Origin: a virus | Taxonomy: Duplodnaviria; Heunggongvirae; Uroviricota; Caudoviricetes | Length of the DNA: 64,000 bases | Direction: 5' to 3' (one strand) | Virus record (IMG/VR): IMGVR_UViG_3300045988_150638 | Shown: positions 14,882 through 27,930 of the stretch, in pieces | Numbering within the stretch: the first letter of the stretch is position 1 | Layout of the letters: each line of letters opens with the position of its first letter | Made by a program: the position numbers and the translations under genes | The notes under the pieces: generated by a model | What the model saw: only the letters and a program-made list of their open reading frames with translations | Databases searched by the model: none | What the model was told of the DNA's origin: nothing

Positions 14882-17800
14882 ATGAACAAGCTATCTATGG
14901 GGGTGTTTCGCTGTTCAAGTGTCAGCGAAATATTGAAATACATTAGGGCAATAACATCTCACCGAGCGCCGATTAAATACGGCGTGGAAAAGGTGGAAGG
15001 CAAAAGCTATGACCGACTGCGCCGGGAGGCGAATCAGAAGGCGATAGATTTGCTTAATTCGCTGGTGGACGGCGCGACACTGACAGATGAACAGCGCCAG
15101 ATCCTGGCTGGGTACACCGGTGAAGGCGGCATTGGCGGGTCCGTCTCCGAATATTACACACCAAAGCCGATCGCTGAAGGTGTCTGGGAGATCATGAAGC
15201 TCTACGGCGCGGACGTAGGTAACACTCTGGAACCATCGGCGGGAACCGGCGTTTTTAATGAGACAAAACCGGTTGGTACGGTGATGACCGCGACTGAGAT
15301 CAGCAGTGTTTCCGGTCGTATAAACCAGTTGTTACACCCGGAAGACAGCGTACAGATTTCCCCGTTCGAACAGCTGGCTATAAGCACGCCTAACGATTCA
15401 TTCGACCATGTTGTGGGTAACGTTCCGTTCGGCGGTCGTGATAACACACGCAACATCGATAAGCCTTACGCAGAAGAAACGGACATGGGTTCTTACTTCA
15501 TGCTCCGCATGCTGGACAAGATAAAGCCAGGCGGATTCATGTGCGTGATTGTGCCGCCGTCCATTGTTTCAGGTTCAAACATGAAGCGGTTACGCCTGCG
15601 CTTATCCCGTAAAGCTGAATTTCTTGGCGCTCACCGCTTGCCTACCGGTACTTTTGACGCAAACGGGACCAGTACAGTCGTTGATGTGGTGCTGATGCGC
15701 AAACATCCGGCGGAGATGGCTGAGAAAATCCCCCTGGTGGATGAAGGTACTCTTGAATCGGCAAATGTGCTTTGGCCAACGTTTATTTCTGGCAAGTGGT
15801 TTGAAAAGGACGGCCGCCGGTTTGTTCATGGCACTCAGGAGAAGGGATTCCAGGGGCGTATTGAGGTTCGTGCCGACGGGCAGATTGATAACCAGGCTCT
15901 TAAAGCGAAGCTGATTCATCGTTTCGAAAGTCGTATCGACTGGTCTTTGCTCGATATGGCTGAACCGTCACCGACCGCAGATGTTGTTGATGAAGGGGAA
16001 ATGCGCCTGATTAATGGCGTATGGCAAAAATATGCTGGTGGTCGCTGGATTGAAGCTGATGCCGGGAAGGAGCTGAAGATTGATGTTGCCAGTTATGGCG
16101 CGGATAGCTGGGAGGCTCTTCAGCGTAACCTGACTACCACAGAAGGTCGTCTCGGCATGACATTTACCCAGATGGCAAATGTCCGCGATAAGTACACCAC
16201 ATCAATCAGCGACGATATGGTGCAGTTGGTGGACTGGATTAACAGCCAACCTGAAAAATACCGTGAACGCTTGTATCGCGGAGCGATGATTGGCCGGATG
16301 TTAATTGAATATCAGGACATGAAGGCCGCCGGGCATAGTGCTGAACAAATCGAACAGCAGCGCCTTTCTCTGGTATCCCGTTTGCAGGCAGAGATTGACC
16401 GTTTTGGTAACCCCGGTCGCGGTCCGATAGCGAAATTATCGGGGAGCGGTGCGCGCGCCTGGTTTGCTTTCCGTGGTGCAATTAAGCTGGATGGCACTAT
16501 TTCTGACGAGCTGACAGGAAAGCTGGTTACGCATGATTCCAGCGCCAGTTATGACTCCACCAGCTATCAGGACACCCTGCGTTATCTCTATAGCGATCTT
16601 ACCCGCGATCCAATCCAGCTCGATGATTTCCGCCTTGCGTTTACCGGCGAACTGCCAGCCAGTGATGAAGAGTTGCTTAATTTATTGGCCAGCACCCCTG
16701 GTATTGCGGTTTCACCGTATGGCGGGATTGTTCCGTTCGCCCGCGCCACCAGCGGCGACATTAACGAGATAGTGGCTCCAAAACAGGAATTTCTTGCCAC
16801 ACTCCCCGACGGTCCAGTAAAAAACAACGTCCTTAATCAGCTGGCAGCGATCGAAGAGAAGCGCATCAAGACGCCAGCAGAGAATATCCGCTTTAAGCTC
16901 AATAGCCGTTGGTTCGACCGCTCCGTCATTCTGGAGTTTTTGCAGGAAAACGGCTATCCGGATCTGCGCTATGTGCAGTCAGTGCAGCTGGAAGGCGACG
17001 AAATGGTTTCTGACACCTATCACGGTGGTGATGGTCTGTTCGTCGGGCACCGATACGGTGTCGTCCAGCGCAAGGATAAAGAAACAGGCGAGATCCGCTA
17101 CGAGTGGGACCGTAAATCAGGTGAAAACGCGACCGGGTTCCCGGCACAGCTGGAAAAGTATCTCAATGGTGCGCGTATCGGTGGCAAAGATAGCGCGACG
17201 GCGAACGGCTACCGCGAGCAGATGGCACTGCTTGAGGACCAGTTCAATAAGTGGATCAAGACGCACGATCGCTACGATGAGCTGGTTGCCAAATACAACG
17301 ATGTGTTCAATAGCAATATCCCGTATGAACACTCTGGCGATCCGCTTGGGTTGAAGGGATTAAGCGGTAAGCGCCAGCCATTTGATTACCAGAATAGCGA
17401 GGTGCGCCGACTGTCCGAAGATGGGCGCGGCATCCTGGGCTTTGGCACCGGGCTGGGTAAAACCACGACCGCGCTGGCGCTTGAGGCGTTCAACTATGAG
17501 AACGGTCGCTCTACCCGTACTGCGTATGTAGTGCCTAAATCAGTGCTGGAAAATTGGTATTACGAAGCAAAAGAATTCCTGAGTGAAGAGGCATTCAGTA
17601 ACTACCTGTTCGTCGGTCTTGATGTGCTGATGGATGGCGATCAGATTCGCCAGGTGCCGGTGCTCGATGAGAACGGTAAACCTGTTCTTGGTACTGATGG
17701 CACTCCAGTTATGCGCGATGCTCTTAAGCTGGCAGATGAAGCCACTATCACGGCGCGGATGAACGCGATCCCGCACTCAAATTACCGTGCAGTCGTGTTT

Positions 17801-20800
17801 ACCAAAGAACAATACGCCCGCATTCCGCTACGTGATGACACCGTAGATGAGCATGCACAGGATATGCTTTATGACTTCGTTGCCGCCGGGCGCGTAGCCA
17901 GCGCAATGGATTCCGACTCCCACCGCAAAGAGGCCGCGCGTCGCCGGGTATTGTCGGAGTATTCAGATACCGGTACCGAAAAAGCAGAGAAGTATCCGTA
18001 CTTTGAGGATATGGGCTTCGACAGCGTGATTGCTGACGAAGGCCACAACTACCGCAATTGCTATAAAAATGGTCGCGAAGCGTCACAACTGGCCTATCTG
18101 CCCACCAGCGCGGTGGCGCAATCGGCGCGAGATATGGCAATTAAAAACGCGTACCTGATGAAAAAGAATGGCGGGCGCGGGCCGGTTCTCCTGACTGCAA
18201 CGCCAGTCGTTAACACCCCGATCGATGCATACAACATGCTTTCTCATGTTCTGCCGAAGGAATACTGGCAGAACATGGGGATCTACGGTCCTGATGACTT
18301 CGTTAAATTCTTCGGCAAGACCAGGCTGGAAACGGTACAGAAAATCAGCGGTGAAGTTGAAGAAAAAATGGCGCTGGTGGGCTTTGAAAACCTTGATGCG
18401 CTGCGCGGTATATTCCATCGCTGGGTAACGCTTAAAACGGCGGAAGACGTTAAGGATACCGTGGAGATCCCGGAGCTGGACGAACACCAGCAGGATGCAC
18501 CACTTACTGAAGAACAACTGGCGGCGTATGAAGAATTGCGTCAGCAGGCGGAAGCGGCGGCAAAAGCCAACAATGGCGTAACGACCTCGGTCAATGAAGA
18601 CGGCGTGATTGAGCACGAGAAAGCCCGTCCGATCTTCTCAATAATCAGGGATATGGACCGCGTATGTACTGACATGGACCTGTACTATCGCCGGATCACC
18701 TATCGTTTCCTGCCGGAGTATGCCGATGCGGTGCAGCAGCTGGCGGACAGTTTGCCTAAACAAGCCACCAGCGAAGACGACGACAGTGATGATTCAATCA
18801 CGCAGCAATCGCAATACTCCCTGATAGATAAGGGCGAGTTTATTCAGTTGCAGGTTCCGGAAGCGTTCGAGCAGGAAGTGAATAAGCGCCTGGCCAGGTT
18901 TGGCATTGACGAACTGACCGTAACTCACCCCGTTACGCCGAAATACGCGAAGCTGATCGCCACGCTGAAGGAGTTTTTCCCGGAAGGTAAGCAAATCATC
19001 TTCACCGATGAAAAAACGCAGCACCAGAAGCTCAAGCGCATTATCTGCAATGCTCTAAACCTTGAACCTTCAAAGGTGGGGATCCTGAATGCTCAGACGG
19101 TTGCCGAGGCAGGTAAAACCGGTAAGAAACTGAAAGCGGTTAAACCGCCGAAAGAGCTACCGGATGAACCAACAGATGCACAGATAGCGAAATACAACGA
19201 GCAAATGGCTCTGTATGACGCCTATATCGCGCAGCAAAATGAAATGTCGCTGGGCGGGCTGGAAAAGATTGCTGCCGACTTCCAGGAGGGACGGACTCCG
19301 ATCATCATCTGCAACAAAAAGGCAGAGGTGGGTATCAACCTGCATCGAGGAACGACTGACATCCATCATCTGACGTTGCCATGGACACCAGCCAGTATCG
19401 CACAGCGTAACGGTCGCGGTGCCCGAGTTGGTTCCAACCGTGCAAGCGTTCGCGTTCACTACTACTGCGGCAAGGGGTCTTTCGATGAATACCGACTGAA
19501 GACGCTGAAGCGTAAAGCAGGCTGGATCTCCGATATCCTCCGTTCAGATAAGTCAGAAATGGAGAACGCAGACGCCAATGACATGATCGAAATGCAGATG
19601 TATACCGCGAAGGATGACGGCGAACGTCTGGCAATGATGCAGGTTCAAATGGATAAGGCGAAAGCTGCGAAACGCGCTCGCCAGAAAGAACAGGCTACTA
19701 TCGACCTTCAGAACTACATCAAGGCGCAGCACGCAGCTGGCGAGGATGTTGAGGTACTTACCGCTGAATTAGAACGAAGCAAAGCGGAACTTGAAAAGAC
19801 CACCGCCGAGGTAGCTAAATTCAAACAGGCGGCAATGGCCAAGGCAGCGGATAACGCAGACTGGAAGGCCCGCTGGGGGAGTGTCCATCACACAGACCGT
19901 ATGTTGTTAGCACAGTATCGCGCGTCGTTGAAAAGTGCCATTCAGCGCAAGGCTAATATCTCTCAGGCCATCTCCCGCTATGAGAAATTATTGAACCGTA
20001 CTCATAAGGCCGCGACGGATATCAAACGCCTGCGCCCGCTGGTGGAGGATGCAATAAATAAAGGCATTCTGGATGTTGATCCTGATCTGGTTAACCATGC
20101 GAATGAGTTCCTCGTTATCGGCGATCGCTCATGGCGTGTAGGCCAATACTACGATTGTGCCGGTGATATCGTTCGCATTAAGTCGCTGGACTTCGACAGC
20201 CAGCGCGCAGACGTGGAGATCATCTTTACCTTCAAAGGCACCAAATCGGGTAACTGGGATGTGAAGACGCTGGATAAACAGGTTGATGTAACTCCCGATG
20301 AAGATGCTGTTATGCAGAAAATCAGTGGTGGCGTCTCCATCGCCGGGATTAACGACATCATTTCCTGTGACGATTTCTACCGTTTCCAGCAGCGCGGCAT
20401 GATCAAAATCACTGACTCATACGGCGTTCAGACTACAGAGTCAGGCTATAGCATTGATTTTGTTGGTTCCTATACGGCCCCACTGAAGCATGCGGTTTAC
20501 CCGGATCGCCGTGACGGCGCGCTGAAGTCGTCAATTGCAAAATGGGTGCTTGGTATGATGTCGGAAGGGAATAACCGCCAGATCCGTTCGGCAGAAACAT
20601 TCCTGGTTGAATTGTTTGGCTCCAATTATGGCGATGTAATCGCGTCATACGGAGATACGCTATCCCCTGAAGCAATTCAGGAGAAAATAGCGGATGCGAT
20701 CGCAAAAATGCCGGAGAAAACAAGCCAGGGGGCTACTCGTAACGGGGATTCTGAACTTGAAGTCACCAATGCCATTTTCGGAACCCATGAGTTCCGGGCG

Positions 20801-21649
20801 TCAGATTATGAGATCACCACAGCACAGTTTGGCACCATTGGCATTTACAGCAATAAAGCCGAGATCAAGCAGGCAATGGACTCAGCAAGCGCGCGCATCG
20901 CAGCAGAACGGGAAGCCAATCTGAATCATGCAGTCGCCGCACTGACTCAATCGTGGGTAACAGCAATCAGGGAGGCCGCTACCACAGGGAAAATCACACC
21001 TGCAATTGCGGATGTCGTAAACGACGGCTCTAAATTTATGGATGCCTATCAAATGGATGCGGTGCAGTTGCCATCAGCCTATGGCCAACTCAGCTATCGC
21101 ATGACCTACAACCTGGTATCAATGTTTTCCGACCTTGCCATCCTTGGGCTGGTGGACCTTAACGAGGTTACGCCGGAATTGCTCAGCATGCGCAAGAATC
21201 ATGTGGAGATATTGCAGAGAATTAACACGGTTCTTGCCGGGCGCACCGATGAAGAGAAACAGGCCGACGCTGATCGGATAAACCTGGCCCTTGGCAACAT
21301 CACGGAGGAAGAAATTGCCGCCAGAAACGAGAAACAAGAAGAGTTATCATCAATACAGGGTGATGCCACCAGCATAGCTCAGTCTCTTGGTCTGAATTAT
21401 CGCGTATCCACCGCCGACCTGAAGATGATGTACGCACCAAAATTCGCCGCTGGCGAGGTATTTGGGCTTCAGGAAGCCTCAGGCATGAAAGGCGTTCTTT
21501 TCCGTGCGAAAGACGCAATCAAGGCGAAATTCGGCGCTCGCTGGCTGCCAGCGAAGGCGAAGAACAGCGATTTCCCGGGTAACTGGTGGATTATCGAGAC
21601 AAAACACAACGTGGCGGACGTTCTGGCCGTCATCCAACAATACGCATAA
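14882..21649 (+). CDS. darB: DarB anti-restriction protein (N6-adenine methyltransferase-helicase fusion)
   Basis: 2255 aa, matching recalled size of P1 DarB; methyltransferase-like VGNVPFGG, Walker A GTGLGKTT and DEGHN helicase motifs. Confidence 0.85.
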   Translation: MNKLSMGVFRCSSVSEILKYIRAITSHRAPIKYGVEKVEGKSYDRLRREANQKAIDLLNSLVDGATLTDEQRQILAGYTGEGGIGGSVSEYYTPKPIAEGVWEIMKLYGADVGNTLEPSAGTGVFNETKPVGTVMTATEISSVSGRINQLLHPEDSVQISPFEQLAISTPNDSFDHVVGNVPFGGRDNTRNIDKPYAEETDMGSYFMLRMLDKIKPGGFMCVIVPPSIVSGSNMKRLRLRLSRKAEFLGAHRLPTGTFDANGTSTVVDVVLMRKHPAEMAEKIPLVDEGTLESANVLWPTFISGKWFEKDGRRFVHGTQEKGFQGRIEVRADGQIDNQALKAKLIHRFESRIDWSLLDMAEPSPTADVVDEGEMRLINGVWQKYAGGRWIEADAGKELKIDVASYGADSWEALQRNLTTTEGRLGMTFTQMANVRDKYTTSISDDMVQLVDWINSQPEKYRERLYRGAMIGRMLIEYQDMKAAGHSAEQIEQQRLSLVSRLQAEIDRFGNPGRGPIAKLSGSGARAWFAFRGAIKLDGTISDELTGKLVTHDSSASYDSTSYQDTLRYLYSDLTRDPIQLDDFRLAFTGELPASDEELLNLLASTPGIAVSPYGGIVPFARATSGDINEIVAPKQEFLATLPDGPVKNNVLNQLAAIEEKRIKTPAENIRFKLNSRWFDRSVILEFLQENGYPDLRYVQSVQLEGDEMVSDTYHGGDGLFVGHRYGVVQRKDKETGEIRYEWDRKSGENATGFPAQLEKYLNGARIGGKDSATANGYREQMALLEDQFNKWIKTHDRYDELVAKYNDVFNSNIPYEHSGDPLGLKGLSGKRQPFDYQNSEVRRLSEDGRGILGFGTGLGKTTTALALEAFNYENGRSTRTAYVVPKSVLENWYYEAKEFLSEEAFSNYLFVGLDVLMDGDQIRQVPVLDENGKPVLGTDGTPVMRDALKLADEATITARMNAIPHSNYRAVVFTKEQYARIPLRDDTVDEHAQDMLYDFVAAGRVASAMDSDSHRKEAARRRVLSEYSDTGTEKAEKYPYFEDMGFDSVIADEGHNYRNCYKNGREASQLAYLPTSAVAQSARDMAIKNAYLMKKNGGRGPVLLTATPVVNTPIDAYNMLSHVLPKEYWQNMGIYGPDDFVKFFGKTRLETVQKISGEVEEKMALVGFENLDALRGIFHRWVTLKTAEDVKDTVEIPELDEHQQDAPLTEEQLAAYEELRQQAEAAAKANNGVTTSVNEDGVIEHEKARPIFSIIRDMDRVCTDMDLYYRRITYRFLPEYADAVQQLADSLPKQATSEDDDSDDSITQQSQYSLIDKGEFIQLQVPEAFEQEVNKRLARFGIDELTVTHPVTPKYAKLIATLKEFFPEGKQIIFTDEKTQHQKLKRIICNALNLEPSKVGILNAQTVAEAGKTGKKLKAVKPPKELPDEPTDAQIAKYNEQMALYDAYIAQQNEMSLGGLEKIAADFQEGRTPIIICNKKAEVGINLHRGTTDIHHLTLPWTPASIAQRNGRGARVGSNRASVRVHYYCGKGSFDEYRLKTLKRKAGWISDILRSDKSEMENADANDMIEMQMYTAKDDGERLAMMQVQMDKAKAAKRARQKEQATIDLQNYIKAQHAAGEDVEVLTAELERSKAELEKTTAEVAKFKQAAMAKAADNADWKARWGSVHHTDRMLLAQYRASLKSAIQRKANISQAISRYEKLLNRTHKAATDIKRLRPLVEDAINKGILDVDPDLVNHANEFLVIGDRSWRVGQYYDCAGDIVRIKSLDFDSQRADVEIIFTFKGTKSGNWDVKTLDKQVDVTPDEDAVMQKISGGVSIAGINDIISCDDFYRFQQRGMIKITDSYGVQTTESGYSIDFVGSYTAPLKHAVYPDRRDGALKSSIAKWVLGMMSEGNNRQIRSAETFLVELFGSNYGDVIASYGDTLSPEAIQEKIADAIAKMPEKTSQGATRNGDSELEVTNAIFGTHEFRASDYEITTAQFGTIGIYSNKAEIKQAMDSASARIAAEREANLNHAVAALTQSWVTAIREAATTGKITPAIADVVNDGSKFMDAYQMDAVQLPSAYGQLSYRMTYNLVSMFSDLAILGLVDLNEVTPELLSMRKNHVEILQRINTVLAGRTDEEKQADADRINLALGNITEEEIAARNEKQEELSSIQGDATSIAQSLGLNYRVSTADLKMMYAPKFAAGEVFGLQEASGMKGVLFRAKDAIKAKFGARWLPAKAKNSDFPGNWWIIETKHNVADVLAVIQQYA

Positions 21650-21655
21650 CAGGAG

Positions 21656-21673
21656 CGCCCGGTTCGCCGGGCG
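21656..21673 (+). terminator. stem-loop downstream of darB
   Basis: CGCCCGG-ttcg-CCGGGCG hairpin; no clear U-tract, so it may be an attenuator or stability element. Confidence 0.3.
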
Positions 21674-21682
21674 TCGCATAAT

Positions 21683-22123
21683 ATGGCCACACTATCTGAT
21701 ACAATAAAACCGAATAAAACATATCTTGAGGCGGTACTCCGTACAGCGTTGTTAGGAAAGACAGAAGACGAATACGTTGATTTCTTCCTGTCAGGGCTAC
21801 GCGGGCGATTACTGAAAAATCCCCGCCTGTACCGCAGCTATGGTCCATACTGGCCGGAAATTAAAAAATTATTACTGGAGCGCGGTTATGGTAATTTCGG
21901 TCGTCTCGTTGACCGTGACGTTCGCAAAATTTACCGTTATGACCGCCCGGCGCTGACGCTCATAGCTGCGACGCTCTACAGCCAGGAGCGTTTTGATAAT
22001 GGTCAGATATACTCAGCCTGGCATTTACTGCCAGTGCCTGAAGAGGTTGACGACCAGGACTATGAGTTTGAGTCTTACGATTTGGAAGTTGAAGCCTTAG
22101 CACAGGCTGGAGAGAAAACTTGA
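21683..22123 (+). CDS. ulx: Ulx (upstream of lxc)
   Basis: 146 aa; position between darB and lxc as recalled for P1. Confidence 0.4.
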   Translation: MATLSDTIKPNKTYLEAVLRTALLGKTEDEYVDFFLSGLRGRLLKNPRLYRSYGPYWPEIKKLLLERGYGNFGRLVDRDVRKIYRYDRPALTLIAATLYSQERFDNGQIYSAWHLLPVPEEVDDQDYEFESYDLEVEALAQAGEKT

Positions 22124-22368
22124 AAAAGCGATACTACACAGTAAAGCATGGGACGCTACGAGCATTACAAGAGTTTGCTGATAAGCATAACGTTGAGGTG
22201 CGCAGGGAAGGGGGAAGTAAAGCTCTGCGCATGTACCGTCCGGACGGGAAATGGCGTACGGTCGTCGATTTCAAAACTAACAGTGTTCCCCAGGGCGTCC
22301 GCGACCGGGCATTCGAAGAATGGGAGCAAATCATCATAGATAATGCATTGCTCCTGAATGCTGATTAA
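22120..22368 (+). CDS. lxc: Lxc/Bof co-repressor (modulator of C1 binding)
   Basis: 82 aa, matching recalled size of P1 Bof/Lxc; start overlaps ulx stop. Confidence 0.45.
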   Translation: MKKRYYTVKHGTLRALQEFADKHNVEVRREGGSKALRMYRPDGKWRTVVDFKTNSVPQGVRDRAFEEWEQIIIDNALLLNAD

Positions 22369-22376
22369 GTTTGTCT

Positions 22377-22396
22377 AGCCCGGTTAATACCGGGCT
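22377..22396. terminator. bidirectional stem-loop terminator
   Basis: perfect hairpin AGCCCGG-ttaata-CCGGGCT between convergent lxc and the hotspot cassette. Confidence 0.5.
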
Positions 22397-22426
22397 GGTT
22401 TAGACATCTTAAGTGGGTGTTAATTT

Positions 22427-22936
22427 TTAATTATGGTTAATCATATCTAACAGTATTTTTAGCTTCCTGCATGTGTTATCAATATCTTTACATAATATGA
22501 CATCAAGGATGTTTGGTAGTCCTAATACCATATGAGAAATGAAACCCTCGCCAACTTGTAGATTATGGGTAGTCTCATCTGGATTCACGTATTCAATGGT
22601 TTTAGTTTTATTTATCCCATAATCTTTATAACAGATGATTACAGGAATGTTCTTCTGTTCAGCAATCTGCAACTCTATTCCTAGCCCTGTTGATGGAAAA
22701 CTACATTCTGCAATTATTACATCAGATTTCTCAACCATATCTCTGTCCCAAATGTAACAAAGTCTAGATTTGTTACTTTCAGGGCGCTTTGATAATTCTG
22801 GGTCACTATTTATCAAAGCATATTTTACGTTGTTATTTTGAGATAGACCTTTTGCAAGGCTGTGAATCCAATTACTGTACTCATGGAAAATTTCCCTTGG
22901 AACATGAGTTAAAGCGCATGCGATATATATATTCAT
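22427..22936 (-). CDS. nucleoside 2-deoxyribosyltransferase-like (NDT/DNPH1-fold) protein, hotspot cassette gene B
   Basis: 169 aa; N-terminal strand IYIACAL and DVIIAECSFPSTGLGIELQIAEQKNIPVI, which mirrors the NDT catalytic-Glu motif (GLGMELGYALSQGKYVL); ATG overlaps the stop of the upstream gene (TAATG); AT-rich. Confidence 0.6.
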   Translation of the reverse strand: MNIYIACALTHVPREIFHEYSNWIHSLAKGLSQNNNVKYALINSDPELSKRPESNKSRLCYIWDRDMVEKSDVIIAECSFPSTGLGIELQIAEQKNIPVIICYKDYGINKTKTIEYVNPDETTHNLQVGEGFISHMVLGLPNILDVILCKDIDNTCRKLKILLDMINHN

Positions 22937-23976
22937 TAAGAAGCAGACCTTACGTTTGGGATAAGAAATTGGTGTCCAGTAATTTCAGATGAAATTGCAT
23001 CTATAAACTGTGACGGAGATTGTTGAATAAATTCAGCAATAATCCAGTTTTCTTTTTCATTTAGTAACTGTCTTAGCTTAAGTGGGTCATACCGACATAG
23101 CTCACTTAATCGATGCATAGCTGCTAGGGTTATAACCAATGGCGATATTGAAACAGAAGTATGCTCAGATTGATTGTTTTTACGTTTGAGATACCAAAGA
23201 GTCTCTGCGCCATTGATATAGTAAAGATTTCTTCTTATTTTTTGATGAAATTCAGTTAATTGCGGCATGTTGGATGATTGATTTTCATTATAATCAAGTA
23301 ATGATTCTACTGATTTTATTTTGTACTTTTCTCTTTCAAACAATTCGAACGCTGGCGGTAGAATGTCGAAAACTGTGTCGAACCGAAAATCCTTGGATAA
23401 AATCGCAGTGAAAAACAGGCTATTGTCTGACTCATTCAAAACGAACTCAGCATCGATCAGTGGAATAAATATATCATCAGTTACATCATAAGTAAGGCAA
23501 TATGTACGATGAATGTATGGCAATCCAGAAAAAAGGTTTTTTATATTGTACACCCCCTCATGAGAGGTGCCGTCAATATATTTTGAAAAAGACGGAAGTA
23601 TACCCTCATTTTTTATTTTTACTTTTATATCAGATAAGTTATCAATTTGGGCTGCATTTTCACCCCTAGCAACACCATGATGCTGTTTGAAGTTTATATT
23701 GCGAGATGAAAGTAACGCCTTTACTGCATTCATGAATGAATAATAGTGCAAAAGTGGGGCTGATTGGTTGGGTAAACCATTGGCCGCCTGATTAAATACT
23801 TTTGCTTGCTCCCAATAAAAAAGAGCCTCATCTTTTTCGTTTCGCTTTAACCAGAGTTCGACAAAATCCCAATGACTGTATGTAAGTACATTCCTTGCGG
23901 TTAGGTCAGGGTTTAATGATGCTTTATGAGGCTTCATGACCTTGTTCCTAATTTTCAGCGGCTTAATATTCATCAT
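22936..23976 (-). CDS. hypothetical protein, hotspot cassette gene A (possibly YaaC-like)
   Basis: 346 aa; GGAGGA SD 8 nt upstream; AT-rich; LLHYYSFMNAVKALL segment resembles the YaaC-family signature from memory; no catalytic motif recognised. Confidence 0.5.
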   Translation of the reverse strand: MMNIKPLKIRNKVMKPHKASLNPDLTARNVLTYSHWDFVELWLKRNEKDEALFYWEQAKVFNQAANGLPNQSAPLLHYYSFMNAVKALLSSRNINFKQHHGVARGENAAQIDNLSDIKVKIKNEGILPSFSKYIDGTSHEGVYNIKNLFSGLPYIHRTYCLTYDVTDDIFIPLIDAEFVLNESDNSLFFTAILSKDFRFDTVFDILPPAFELFEREKYKIKSVESLLDYNENQSSNMPQLTEFHQKIRRNLYYINGAETLWYLKRKNNQSEHTSVSISPLVITLAAMHRLSELCRYDPLKLRQLLNEKENWIIAEFIQQSPSQFIDAISSEITGHQFLIPNVRSAS

Positions 23977-24005
23977 TGTAATAATCCTCCACCCAAAGTT
24001 ACTAG

Positions 24006-24034
24006 ATTGTAAAATATATATTTTTGTTCCACAA
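24006..24034 (-). promoter_or_regulatory. sigma70-like promoter of the hotspot cassette
   Basis: minus strand TTGTGG -35 and TACAAT -10 separated by 17 bp, about 30 nt upstream of the gene A start. Confidence 0.4.
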
Positions 24035-24066
24035 CAAAAATCTCTATTGGCTACTGACGTAATTAA

Positions 24067-24708
24067 TTATAAATAGTTTTCTTTGCCGGTAAGTAAGCCT
24101 TGAGGAACTCGCTTGTCGGCTAGACATTGGGTTCCGCGAATTATGTTAATCAGAGGGCTTAGTAACGATGTTTCCTGGCGGGCCTCAACTTCTCCAGCCA
24201 TTGCCCTGATGTAGTCGGCGCTTGCAACGTTGTTATATTCCGTTGCGAAGCAGCATAACAACGACAGAACGTGCTCTGTCGTTATTTCGCTCCAGTTGAT
24301 GTTGAAAAATTCATCGCCTTTTTTGTCGTGTTCGGAATCGAAGATGCTTTGGTGGAGGATGTATTTGCCGGATTCTTTGCGCGGTAACTTGATCGCTTTC
24401 TGGCGTTCCAGCTCCTTGTAAATCTGCATTGCTTCAATTAGTACCGGCCTGCCGTTCATGAAGGGATCGCGCAACCTTACACGCTGGCCAACTCGACCCG
24501 TAATAAAGCTGTTTTCCTCTTCCACCAGCACGATAAAACCCTTTTCCTCTTTTTCTCGCAATTCGCGCAGCAGCTGGAGTTCCATATCGCGGCGGCGTTC
24601 AGGGTAGCTGGTCCGCTCAGCCATTATCAACTCGTTGTTGATCCATGCAGCAGTCATTGACGCCGGTTTACCGACGCTCATCGAAACAACGCATATTTTC
24701 TTATCCAT
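24067..24708 (-). CDS. mat: Mat
   Basis: ORF to 24855; ATG at 24708 preferred (AGGGGG SD); position between ref and the res-mod slot as in P1. Confidence 0.45.
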   Translation of the reverse strand: MDKKICVVSMSVGKPASMTAAWINNELIMAERTSYPERRRDMELQLLRELREKEEKGFIVLVEEENSFITGRVGQRVRLRDPFMNGRPVLIEAMQIYKELERQKAIKLPRKESGKYILHQSIFDSEHDKKGDEFFNINWSEITTEHVLSLLCCFATEYNNVASADYIRAMAGEVEARQETSLLSPLINIIRGTQCLADKRVPQGLLTGKENYL

Positions 24709-24897
24709 AGCGCCCCCTATAAAAAAGAAAAGCCACCAGCGGCGGCTTAGCAATACAACTGAAGGTAGCGCCCGGTACTCAGACTGTGCCGTCCATGGAA
24801 TATTTGAAAAGGGATCCATCCGTACCGGGCATGTGATGATTCTGACTGAAGTCACTTGTAAGTTGTCAATTATTTCAGATTAAAAATAATATATTTA

Positions 24898-25458
24898 TTA
24901 GTGCATGATGTTTACCATCTCATAGGCGTCAGCCAGCAACTCCATCTCTGACTTGTTCAGCAAGGTGAATTCTTTCTTGCCTCCAACCACACCATCGGCA
25001 TGAACAGGGACCAGCCAGGGGTATTTTTCTCTTACTTCAGCCGGTGCTGCATGCTGGTGGTGCCATCTACAAAGTGGCAATTGCTTTTTGTGACAACCAG
25101 GCGCGGTACGACCGGAGATATGGTGCAGAGACACCTCTTCAGATATTACTCCATGCATATAGCAGGCAATGCAGGGGAGAGTGCCAAGAGCATTGGCGAT
25201 GGTCCGTTCCTCCGCCGTCGGTGTTCGCCCCTTCAAGCCACGAGATTTTATTTTTACCGCACTTTTCCGCGTTTTGCTGGCTGGTGGGCGCTCTTTCTGT
25301 TTAGCGATACGGCGGTCGATAGAATCCCGCATTTTCTGATATTGCGATTCTCGCCAGGCGGGGTCAGCCAACTTTTCCCGTTGCCGAGCGATCGCTCGTT
25401 CTCTGGCTGCCTTCTGCCACTCGCGGCGCTGTTCAAGTTTTTGTTCGATTGTTTTCAT
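24898..25458 (-). CDS. ref: Ref recombination enhancement function (HNH endonuclease)
   Basis: 186 aa from MKTIEQK, matching recalled Ref size; Cys/His-rich HNH-like C-terminal region; C1 operator upstream. Confidence 0.75.
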   Translation of the reverse strand: MKTIEQKLEQRREWQKAARERAIARQREKLADPAWRESQYQKMRDSIDRRIAKQKERPPASKTRKSAVKIKSRGLKGRTPTAEERTIANALGTLPCIACYMHGVISEEVSLHHISGRTAPGCHKKQLPLCRWHHQHAAPAEVREKYPWLVPVHADGVVGGKKEFTLLNKSEMELLADAYEMVNIMH

Positions 25459-26066: not shown

Positions 26067-27098
26067 CTAATCGCCATCTTCCAGCAGGCGCACCATTGCC
26101 CCTGTTTCACTATCCAGGTTACGGATATAGTTCATGACAATATTTACGTTGGTCCAGCCACCAGCTTGCATGATCTCCGGTATTGAAACTCCGGCGCGGG
26201 CCATATCTCGCGCGGCACCGACACGGGCACTGTGTCCAGACCAGGCCAGGTACCTCTGGCCAGAGTCATCCTTAGCTCCGTAAATCAATCGGTGGGTTGC
26301 TTCAAAAATCCCTTCCAGGGCGCGAGTTGATAGCTGGCTGGTGGATGATGGCGAGGCAACACCATTTTTTCTGACGCGGCAAAACAGGTAGTTATTCGGA
26401 TCATCAGCTACACCAGAGACAGAAATCCATCGCTCGACCAGTTTAGTTACCCCCAGGCTAAGTGCCTTCTCTACACCAGCGGTGCTAACCAGCGTTTTCG
26501 TTCTGCCAATATGGATTAACATTCTCCCACCGTCAGTACGTGAGATATCTTTAACCCTGATCCTGGCAATTTCGGCTATACGTAACAGGGTGTTATAAGC
26601 AATCCCCAGAAATGCCAGATTACGTATATCCTGGCAGCGATCACTATTTTCCATGAGTGAACGAACCAGGTCGAAATCAGTGCGTTCGAACGCCAGCGCC
26701 TGTTTTGCACGCTCACCGGCATCAACGTTTTCTTTTCGGATCCGTCGCATGACCAGTGAAACAGCATTGCAGTCACTAGGTCGTGGCAGCCCGGACCGAC
26801 GATGAAGCATGTTTAGCTGGCCCAAATGTTGCTGGATAGTTTTTACTGCCAGACCGCGCGCCTGAAGATATAGAAGATAATCGCGAACATCTTCAGGTTC
26901 TGCGGGAAACCATTTCCGGTTATTCAACTTGCACCATGCCGCCCATGACCGGCAAACGGACAGAAGCATTTTCCAGGTATGCTCAGAAAACGCCTGGCGA
27001 TCCCTGAACATGTCCATCAGGTTCTTGCGAACCTCATCACTCGTTGCATCGACCGGTAATGCAGGCAAATTTTGGTGTACGGTCAGTAAATTGGACAT
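26067..27098 (-). CDS. cre: Cre site-specific tyrosine recombinase
   Basis: 343 aa; essentially identical to P1 Cre (MSNLLTVHQNLPALPVDATSDEVRKNLMDMFRDRQAF...MVRLLEDGD); loxP lies about 420 bp upstream. Confidence 0.97.
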   Translation of the reverse strand: MSNLLTVHQNLPALPVDATSDEVRKNLMDMFRDRQAFSEHTWKMLLSVCRSWAAWCKLNNRKWFPAEPEDVRDYLLYLQARGLAVKTIQQHLGQLNMLHRRSGLPRPSDCNAVSLVMRRIRKENVDAGERAKQALAFERTDFDLVRSLMENSDRCQDIRNLAFLGIAYNTLLRIAEIARIRVKDISRTDGGRMLIHIGRTKTLVSTAGVEKALSLGVTKLVERWISVSGVADDPNNYLFCRVRKNGVASPSSTSQLSTRALEGIFEATHRLIYGAKDDSGQRYLAWSGHSARVGAARDMARAGVSIPEIMQAGGWTNVNIVMNYIRNLDSETGAMVRLLEDGD

Positions 27099-27105
27099 TT
27101 AACAC

Positions 27106-27327
27106 TCAGATAATGGTTTTAAGTAAAGTGTACAGGATCGGCTCTGCCTTTACCTGTTTATGGTTCTCGTCATAGAAACGCCAGCGACCGCGCGTGCGTT
27201 CTATTTTCTCTTCACCGCGCGATAATGACAGTTGACAACTATCACGATCAAACCCTTTTGCCCGCCAGTAACCACGGTTTTTCTCAAGCTCAATATGAGT
27301 GGACACTTTAGCAGCTGAATATCCCAT
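27106..27327 (-). CDS. hypothetical small protein between loxP and cre
   Basis: 73 aa; GAGGTG SD 5 nt upstream of ATG; not a gene I recall from P1. Confidence 0.3.
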   Translation of the reverse strand: MGYSAAKVSTHIELEKNRGYWRAKGFDRDSCQLSLSRGEEKIERTRGRWRFYDENHKQVKAEPILYTLLKTII

Positions 27328-27515
27328 TTTTCACCTCTGATTGATTGGTGGTGCTAAGTGCGCTACGCGAAATCTGGAGCACTAACACTGCCAACATTTC
27401 GCAGATTTTACGTAGCGCAACCTTGATCAAATGATCAAGTGATCACTATTTGACCTGTAAGGTATTGAACTGTATGGATTTACAGGTAAATTGATCATGT
27501 TCAATAACCCTTAAG

Positions 27516-27549
27516 ATAACTTCGTATAATGTATGCTATACGAAGTTAT
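27516..27549. other. loxP recombination site
   Basis: exact ATAACTTCGTATA-ATGTATGC-TATACGAAGTTAT; GATC sites nearby. Confidence 0.98.
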
Positions 27550-27592
27550 TAGGTCTGAAGAGGAGTTTACGTCCAGCTGCGCATAAAAATCA

Positions 27593-27609
27593 AGAATTAT
27601 TAGAGCAAT
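27593..27609 (-). promoter_or_regulatory. C1 operator (immC Op99 cluster)
   Basis: minus strand ATTGCTCTAATAATTCT. Confidence 0.65.
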
Positions 27610-27669
27610 AAATTTTGAGAGAAAAATCCCACTCCACCAGCCAAAAACTGGATTGTTTTTCATAGTTGT

Positions 27670-27698
27670 TTGACAATTGCTCTAATAAATTATAGTTT
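27670..27698 (+). promoter_or_regulatory. promoter overlapped by a C1 operator (coi-c1 autoregulation)
   Basis: TTGACA followed directly by ATTGCTCTAATAAATTA (operator at 27676-27692) and a TATAGT-like -10. Confidence 0.65.
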
Positions 27699-27930
27699 TG
27701 CCGCCGTTTCGTAATACGACTTTGGATTCACTATTTAATGTGTCTTCAGCGTTGTAGAGCGGCTCAGAAGGAAATGAGCAAACAGGGAAACCTTATACAA
27801 CGGCATTACAGCTATGCATTGCTCATCTTACACACAGCGCAATGTTGTTAGATTACCCCAGCATGGATCATGGGTGAAACAGTAGGTCAGAGCTTCAGGC
27901 TCTGTGTTGTCAATACAGTGAGGCATAATT

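Follow-up and report, generated by a model that had tools for sequence, protein, structure and literature searches.

In this study, we analyzed a stretch of 64,000 nucleotides from the Caudoviricetes virus record IMGVR_UViG_3300045988_150638 of IMG/VR, which is called the window at its full length, and followed up a cassette of two genes that probably serves defence against phages. The genes encode a YaaC-family protein and a protein related to DNPH1 and to nucleoside deoxyribosyltransferases (NDTs). The locus belongs to a P1-like phage-plasmid, and the window runs in the reverse direction of the P1 map. With names taken from the records of P1, SJ46, JL22, and RCS47, the order in the list of open reading frames (ORFs) is darB (14882-21649, plus strand), ulx (21683-22123, plus strand), lxc, the cassette, mat, ref, and cre. 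The conserved flanks of the cassette are lxc on the left (22120-22368, plus strand; annotated as lxc in SJ46, JL22, RCS47, and P1) and mat on the right (24067-24855, minus strand, read from GTG; annotated as mat in related records). The cassette itself comprises the interval between the lxc and mat stop codons (22369-24066, minus strand), which is swapped in other P1-like elements.

Within this interval, the YaaC-family gene (22936-23976, minus strand, 346 aa) is followed by the gene for the NDT-like protein, a putative N-glycosidase (22427-22936, minus strand, 169 aa). As read directly in the sequence, the stop codon of the former and the start codon of the latter overlap as TAATG, whereby the two genes are translationally coupled. 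A Shine-Dalgarno-like GGAGG (23986-23990, minus strand) is located 9 nt 5′ of the YaaC ATG. The two ORFs are real genes and not chance ORFs, because 757 homologues of the YaaC protein and 238 of the NDT-like protein were found and the AlphaFold2 models reached pLDDT values of 91.7 and 95.9, respectively. The GC content was 0.33–0.37 over positions 22400–23800 and 0.48–0.52 in the flanks. Between the convergent lxc and NDT-like genes, a GC-rich hairpin (22373-22405) was predicted with a minimum free energy of −19 kcal/mol (z −5.3), and 0 of 200 shuffled sequences folded equally well. On the cassette strand, it lacks a U-tract. The hairpin is part of the cargo and possibly terminates transcription in both directions. 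At the corresponding position, SJ46 and RCS47 contain other hairpins, different from each other; each cargo comes with a hairpin of its own.

A preliminary description of this DNA had reported two coupled minus-strand genes near the DarB locus, in a cassette more AT-rich than the backbone and with a downstream hairpin, and all of this was found again (about 34% GC in the cassette versus about 50% in its flanks). With regard to the sigma70-like promoter it had assigned to the cassette, the elements TTGTGG (24034-24029) and TACAAT (24011-24006) are indeed present on the minus strand with a 17-nt spacer (24006-24034). However, this is a weak match with 8 of 12 consensus positions, below the threshold of the consensus scan, and the region contained fewer promoter-like sites (4) than its shuffled versions (8.0 ± 2.7). 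The element is plausible as a promoter but has no statistical support. Given that cassette and mat share one orientation, the cassette could equally well be transcribed by read-through from mat.

The interval between lxc and mat turned out to be an exchange point. In a comparison of positions 21600–24900 of the window with other P1-like phages and plasmids, homology ended at query positions 773 and 2468. Base-by-base inspection of the junctions against RCS47, in which the slot is empty, and against SJ46 placed the divergence directly after the lxc TAA and the return to homology at the mat stop codon. The flanks matched 707 plasmids of PLSDB, 77 of which (11%) contained the cassette. Elsewhere among the 707, the slot held genes for RelA/SpoT, SIR2, PIN, DUF2971, GNAT, or EAL proteins, or nothing, with the limitation that some inserts, as in P1 itself, were too long to be joined in the flank comparison. 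In the P1 reference, the slot contains res and mod, i.e. type III restriction-modification (R-M), co-oriented with lxc. Here the preliminary description, which had listed res-mod and IS1 for the mat-lxc interval of P1, was right about the two genes, but the insertion sequence is an IS5 located inside mod, and no IS1 is present in the interval. At a threshold of at least 95% identity, 85 plasmids contained the cassette, as did 109 of 5426 complete E. coli genomes. Of three chromosomal copies, one was inspected, and it is an integrated P1-like element.

The SIR2, PIN, DUF2971, and RelA/SpoT cargoes match the PADLOC families PDC-S25/ThsA-like, PDC-S34, PDC-S31, and PDC-S33. Judged by annotation and a size of 373 aa, the RelA/SpoT gene in the slot of SJ46 is presumably that of CapRel-SJ46, a validated anti-phage system encoded by this phage (Zhang et al., PMC9712102). 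The interval thereby shows what is expected of a hotspot for defence cargo, namely identical flanks, alternative cargo including known defence, and the cassette in a fraction of the elements. Expression of the cassette and the other cargoes from the prophage presumably serves to keep other phages out. The opposite direction of action, i.e. that the glycosidase destroys immune signalling nucleotides of the host as anti-defence cargo, might be suspected from the position beside the Dar anti-restriction genes, with darB and ulx adjacent, and from the several anti-defence genes of P1-like elements (10.1101/2025.09.12.675607). We consider this highly improbable, since the other identified mat-lxc cargoes are all of the defence type, the cassette was not found in a collection of 50,697 phage records, and homologous pairs are mostly located in chromosomal, non-phage contexts of many phyla, beside or within defence systems.

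Some further observations concern the slot and its surroundings. No PADLOC family matched the GNAT and EAL cargo proteins. These further candidate cargoes are a GNAT acetyltransferase of 202 aa in the slot of NZ_CP059910.1 (L101:855-1460, minus strand) and an EAL-domain protein of 229 aa in that of NZ_CP080128.1 (L102:1764-2450, plus strand). Two hypothetical ORFs are present there in OP279344, a 'del res del mod' isolate of P1. On the other side of the junction, the mat ORF read from GTG comprises 262 aa, and related records annotate Mat with 213–250 aa (642–753 nt); mat is split in two in JL22, and its C-terminal end differs in RCS47. A second dip in GC content (0.36–0.40) was observed at positions 27200–27800 of the window, just past cre (26067-27098), where only small ORFs are present.

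The 169-aa protein matched Pfam family PF05014 only weakly (E 1.8e-4; 22.1 bits, below the gathering score of 28.8), while some of its homologues carry a precomputed PF05014 match. A profile of the family found Rcl/DNPH1 in the PDB with an E-value of 4.6e-5. Foldseek searches with the model returned DNPH1, NDTs, and the CMP N-glycosidase BcmB with E-values of 1.6e-5 to 6e-4 and a probability of 1.00, which assigns the protein to the NDT fold. In the family alignment, with a mean column identity of 55%, Y4, D64, and E88 do not vary, and P81-S82 is almost invariant. The segment WD...PSTGLGIEL aligns with QD...PSLGVGYEL of DNPH1, which contains the catalytic Asp (in EQD) and the Glu nucleophile (in GVGYEL). 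Both catalytic features of NDT and DNPH1 enzymes are therefore present, i.e. the Glu of G-x-G-x-E-L (E88) and the Asp holding the 3′-OH of the sugar (D64). The catalytic Tyr and the Ser of PST are conserved relative to DNPH1 as well, and the Ser, from the established chemistry of DNPH1, suggests a 5′-phosphate substrate. Taken together, sequence and model characterize the 169-aa protein as a putative N-glycosidase of the DNPH1/NDT type.

The family of this enzyme is small and tight: among 1.84 billion representatives, a cut-off of E ≤ 1e-30 gives 34 clusters, and one of E ≤ 1e-10 gives 106. A sister clade (P0293-P0340 and P0391-P0399; loci L104:6001-7029 and L105:6001-6831) has similar motifs (GGITxVP, CYxxDQ, and PSTGTGQELERA) and a helical C-terminal extension of 100–350 aa. 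The longer relatives of the enzyme, which are from DPANN archaea, were also considered as retron effectors or as fusions with YaaC, and this was rejected in view of no PADLOC match, no additional Pfam domain, and housekeeping neighbours. These relatives lend no support to a role in defence.

The 346-aa protein was assigned to the YaaC family with high significance (PF14175; E 1.4e-45; 156.5 bits versus a cut-off of 27; profile positions 18–307 of 307). RefSeq labels an identical gene as 'YaaC family protein', and some YaaC homologues are labelled UPF0332 by JGI. In the model, residues of about 35–91 and 279–333 form a HEPN-like helical core, an up-down bundle of four helices as in HEPN proteins, which is split by a β-rich insert at about residues 100–265. 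Sequence and profile searches of YaaC against the PDB gave nothing useful, and in a fold search of the PDB the β-rich insert (about 165 residues) matched no solved structure. Usb1, the best match to the protein in the PDB by Foldseek, was discounted as a structural relative (E 0.2, not significant). An alignment of 40 homologues contained 47 invariant columns at a mean column identity of 59%. Conserved basic residues in this alignment are H100, H156-R157, R248, H288-R289, and R295. The Rx4-6H motif of active HEPN RNases was not found as a conserved feature of the 40 sequences, so that RNase activity of YaaC is unsupported. A review of the HEPN superfamily does not include YaaC among its families (PMC3710099).

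For a survey of the pair across bacteria, one genome per species was used, and 80 YaaC loci were returned. In 33 of them, which are those with the highest YaaC scores, an NDT-like gene is located directly 3′ of YaaC. Of these 33 loci, 32 have a distance of −4 to +16 nt between the two genes, and in 9 the genes overlap. Also, many homologues of the two proteins are encoded on shared contigs. The paired loci were found in α-, β-, γ-, δ-, and ε-proteobacteria, Bacteroidota, Planctomycetota, Spirochaetota, and Armatimonadota. Judged from these sequences, YaaC and the NDT-like protein constitute a conserved, mobile two-gene module. A recurrent alternative partner of solo YaaC was also sought; the downstream ORFs are dissimilar to each other and to the NDT profile.

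To describe the genomic context, the proteins encoded up to 7 kb away from the pair in the 33 loci were pooled and searched with PADLOC, so that the hits are counts over the pool and not per locus. They included JetA, JetC, and JetD of Wadjet, a Pycsar cyclase, PDC-M19 (twice), PDC-M45, PDC-S46, GajA and GajB of Gabija (twice), CBASS-type cyclases (twice), MADS, and HamB of Hachiman (E = 0), as well as type I R-M and methylases of types II and III. Resolvases, integrases, and transposases were detected by Pfam in the same neighbourhoods. At individual loci, the pair of Kangiella adjoins an AbiTii protein, that of Nitrospina HicAB, and that of Myxococcus fragments of an integrase; the pair of Aeromonas has ordinary genes as neighbours. 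In the E. coli chromosome GCA_016660575.1 (L006:1-21053), a pair with 59% identity is located between an integrase/BrxR-linked cluster and a Dpd (7-deazaguanine) cluster, the latter with DpdD, PLD, and a DEAD helicase of 1512 aa. The island further contains genes for a ScoMcrA-like HNH protein and a JetD_C-like protein, for BrxR and an integrase, and for PTPS. In some copies of this chromosomal pair, the NDT ORF is shorter (103 or 158 aa), which may reflect decay.

In a Planctomycetota metagenome-assembled genome (L031:7476-14773), the pair is part of a type I R-M operon, in which hsdM, hsdS, YaaC, NDT, and hsdR follow each other on one strand with gaps of 3–13 nt. A comparison with solved HsdR, together with profiles built from an HsdM and an HsdS verified against the PDB, confirmed the R-M subunits. 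Some solo YaaC genes are embedded in type I R-M operons as well. In Aureitalea sp. (L043:8367-12330), YaaC is located between hsdM and hsdS with overlapping reading frames, and in another locus (L054:7251-11029) it follows directly after hsdS.

Such solo relatives within type I R-M operons, together with the conserved His/Arg pairs H156-R157 and H288-R289 and R295, are also what a reversal of roles would draw on. YaaC would then be a HEPN-type toxin (an RNase or otherwise) and the NDT-like protein its regulator or antitoxin, in an abortive infection (Abi) pair comparable to those of HEPN and minimal nucleotidyltransferase (HEPN-MNT) or to HEPN proteins encoded within R-M operons, given that HEPN proteins are common as Abi and R-M-linked effectors (PMC3710099). 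We regard this arrangement as rather unlikely, as the canonical Rx4-6H is not conserved in YaaC, the partner is not a nucleotidyltransferase, and an inert antitoxin would not need the complete set of Y4, D64, and E88.

The chromosomal loci bear on a second alternative, too. A compact, coupled operon on a low-copy plasmid prophage could be a plasmid-addiction or toxin-antitoxin (TA) module that mainly stabilizes the P1-like element, and the slot does hold other cargo of the toxin type, namely CapRel (a fused TA), PIN, and GNAT. This is unlikely, considering that the homologous pairs are mostly chromosomal, several of them in defence islands or within an R-M operon, and that neither protein is like a typical small DNA-binding antitoxin; TA and defence roles are, besides, not mutually exclusive.

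The gene structure, the folds, the conserved catalytic residues, the obligate pairing, the hotspot location, and the defence-island context are established here. From this context, the cassette probably has an anti-phage function. Somewhat weaker, yet still slightly favoured, is the full statement that the cassette is a two-gene anti-phage module in place of EcoP1I with the NDT-like protein as effector. The preliminary description had called the mat-lxc interval a hotspot, the 169-aa protein NDT-like with a conserved Glu in GIELQ, the pairing one not recognised as described, and the cassette a candidate defence system. Each of these points is supported by the analysis: the slot holds the cassette in 77 of 707 P1-like plasmids and alternatives or nothing elsewhere, Foldseek and profile searches lead to DNPH1/NDT enzymes, the Glu is invariant and aligned with the catalytic Glu of DNPH1, and the pairing is absent from PADLOC-DB v2 and from a DefenseFinder survey of P1-like elements. 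The candidacy for defence is thus supported by the hotspot, the absence from the catalogues, the conserved mobile pair in defence islands, and the invariant Glu.

We propose that the 169-aa protein would be the effector and split a phosphorylated (deoxy)nucleotide between base and sugar. Candidate substrates would be deoxynucleoside monophosphates (dNMPs), adenine nucleotides or cofactors of the NAD type, or modified nucleotides specific to the phage. Thereby, phage DNA synthesis could be starved or the infected cell arrested. YaaC may act as a split HEPN-like scaffold, i.e. a sensor or regulator keeping the enzyme off until infection, and the translational coupling would allow the two proteins to be made in a fixed ratio. 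The combination of co-translated proteins, an intact DNPH1 catalytic set, a split HEPN scaffold, co-conservation, and spread into defence loci argues for such a sensor-effector pair. For an NDT-like protein as defence effector, the effector of retron Ec86 offers a precedent by analogy. Complex formation, the substrate, and the identity of the sensing partner are inferred.

Several points weigh against this interpretation. YaaC, without a conserved Rx4-6H, has no obvious catalytic role, and its role as a sensor is a guess. The NDT-like gene is missing in 47 of the 80 YaaC loci, which are the more distant ones and include a locus from a Bacillus genome (L095). In the enzyme, the N-terminal phosphate loop of DNPH1, GSIRGG, is replaced by LTHVPR, so that the substrate is not readable from the sequence. 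The association with defence comes from pooled counts, and the intended control, the loci with solo YaaC, had type I R-M in 4 of 10 loci. Because of this R-M content, the solo loci are not a neutral control; by counts with hidden Markov models, R-M was present in 4 of 45 solo loci versus 4–5 of 33 paired loci. The defence function was deduced from context.

A further point of this kind is that the nearest sister clade of the enzyme comes from DPANN archaea (Mars-, Micr-, and Altiarchaeota), where its neighbours are genes for carbamoyl phosphate synthetase or GMP-synthase-like proteins, a hint that this clade serves ordinary nucleotide metabolism. This is the best argument for a module of nucleotide salvage or sanitation, in which the DNPH1-like enzyme clears aberrant dNMPs as a metabolic accessory, and the closest characterized enzymes, DNPH1/Rcl and BcmB, are metabolic N-glycosidases as well. 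Nevertheless, a metabolic accessory appears very unlikely. The patchy distribution, with the few clusters at E ≤ 1e-30 given above, has the appearance of horizontal transfer, integrases and transposases are among the flanking genes, the cassette is low in GC and foreign-looking, and the pair resides in a slot for phage defence as well as in defence islands.

A more specific version of the sensor-effector reading can be formulated, in which an enzyme of the DNPH1 type, with YaaC as its sensor, would selectively destroy dNMPs that lytic phages free from host DNA and use again, or modified ones specific to the phage such as hydroxymethyl-dCMP or hydroxymethyl-dUMP, sparing de novo synthesis of the host. 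We consider it fairly unlikely. If true, the salvage of nucleotides by the phage would be sabotaged, YaaC would obtain its first function as a HEPN-derived infection sensor, and human DNPH1 would be tied to an ancestral antiviral enzyme family.

With regard to relevance, about 2% of the complete E. coli genomes and 11% of the P1-like plasmids carry the cassette, and the catalogues score this slot as empty. Validation of the defence function would establish a defence system based on DNPH1-like N-glycosidases, which have so far been seen in immunity only as retron effector. It would also give a first clue to the function of the YaaC family, uncharacterized since the early Bacillus genome work. 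Moreover, the mat-lxc slot would be shown as a rich and easily mined hotspot, in which the GNAT and EAL cargoes also lack an assignment. P1-like elements disseminate resistance genes among clinical Enterobacteriaceae, so that their cargo for superinfection exclusion affects host range in phage therapy.

For comparison with known systems, both proteins were searched against PADLOC-DB v2.0.0 (5027 models of known systems and PDC candidates) and matched 0 families at E ≤ 1; scans with NCBIfam and PHROGs gave nothing meaningful. A literature search, which did not extend to subscription-only papers and supplements, yielded no paper linking YaaC or a pair of HEPN and NDT proteins to phage defence. 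In a DefenseFinder survey from 2025, only type III R-M, dGTPase, PrrC, and CapRel were reported for P1-like elements, and complete systems were present in only 28% of those from E. coli (10.1101/2025.09.12.675607). EcoP1I type III R-M and CapRel(SJ46) occupy the same position as the cassette, between the lxc and mat stop codons, but their proteins are unrelated to the pair.

With DNPH1/Rcl, NDT, and BcmB/MilB, the 169-aa protein has the flavodoxin-like NDT fold in common, while its identity to DNPH1/Rcl, NDT, and BcmB is only 14–18%. It differs from DNPH1 by an additional conserved β-hairpin with Y116, NPD, and H124-x-LQ-x-G-x-G, by its obligate YaaC partner, and by the defence-island context. 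Within immunity, the likeness is to retrons of type II-A (Retron-Eco1/Ec86), in which an NDT-fold enzyme is the killing or depleting arm; the NDT-like effector of Ec86 reportedly protects through depletion of adenine and its derivatives (10.1101/2023.08.16.553469). However, the partner there is a reverse transcriptase with msDNA and not a YaaC protein, and the 169-aa protein consists of a single domain in contrast to the bilobed effector of Ec86. No reverse transcriptase ORF and no PADLOC match to a retron effector were found in the cassette, which contains only two ORFs of at least 60 aa with homologues and hence does not qualify as a retron. An Rfam scan gave only a match at chance level, so that a retron or antitoxin RNA is not indicated in the cassette either.

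YaaC shares the HEPN-like four-helix core with HEPN proteins of Abi systems and with those embedded in R-M loci (PrrC/RloC-like; AbiD/F/J/U2/V; PMC3710099). It differs from these proteins in that Rx4-6H is not conserved, the bundle is split by the insert of about 165 residues, and an ATPase domain is missing. Like PrrC, which is embedded in type I R-M operons, YaaC genes can be part of such operons with or without the NDT gene (L031 and L043, respectively). TA systems of the HEPN-MNT kind (types II/VII) are set apart by the partner, which is of the NDT fold in the cassette and not a minimal nucleotidyltransferase, and by size, as YaaC is three times larger than the minimal HEPN toxin of these pairs. 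Other defences deplete nucleotides, among them dGTPase, dCTP deaminase, the ATP nucleosidases of CBASS and Detocs, and the SIR2/TIR NADases. The logic proposed for the cassette would be the same, i.e. destruction of a pool that the phage needs, and the enzyme family is a different one. New two-gene defence candidates are found often, which makes this candidate pair less exceptional. Its architecture is new, and the kind of system is a known one, that of compact abortive or nucleotide-targeting defence modules in hotspots of mobile elements.

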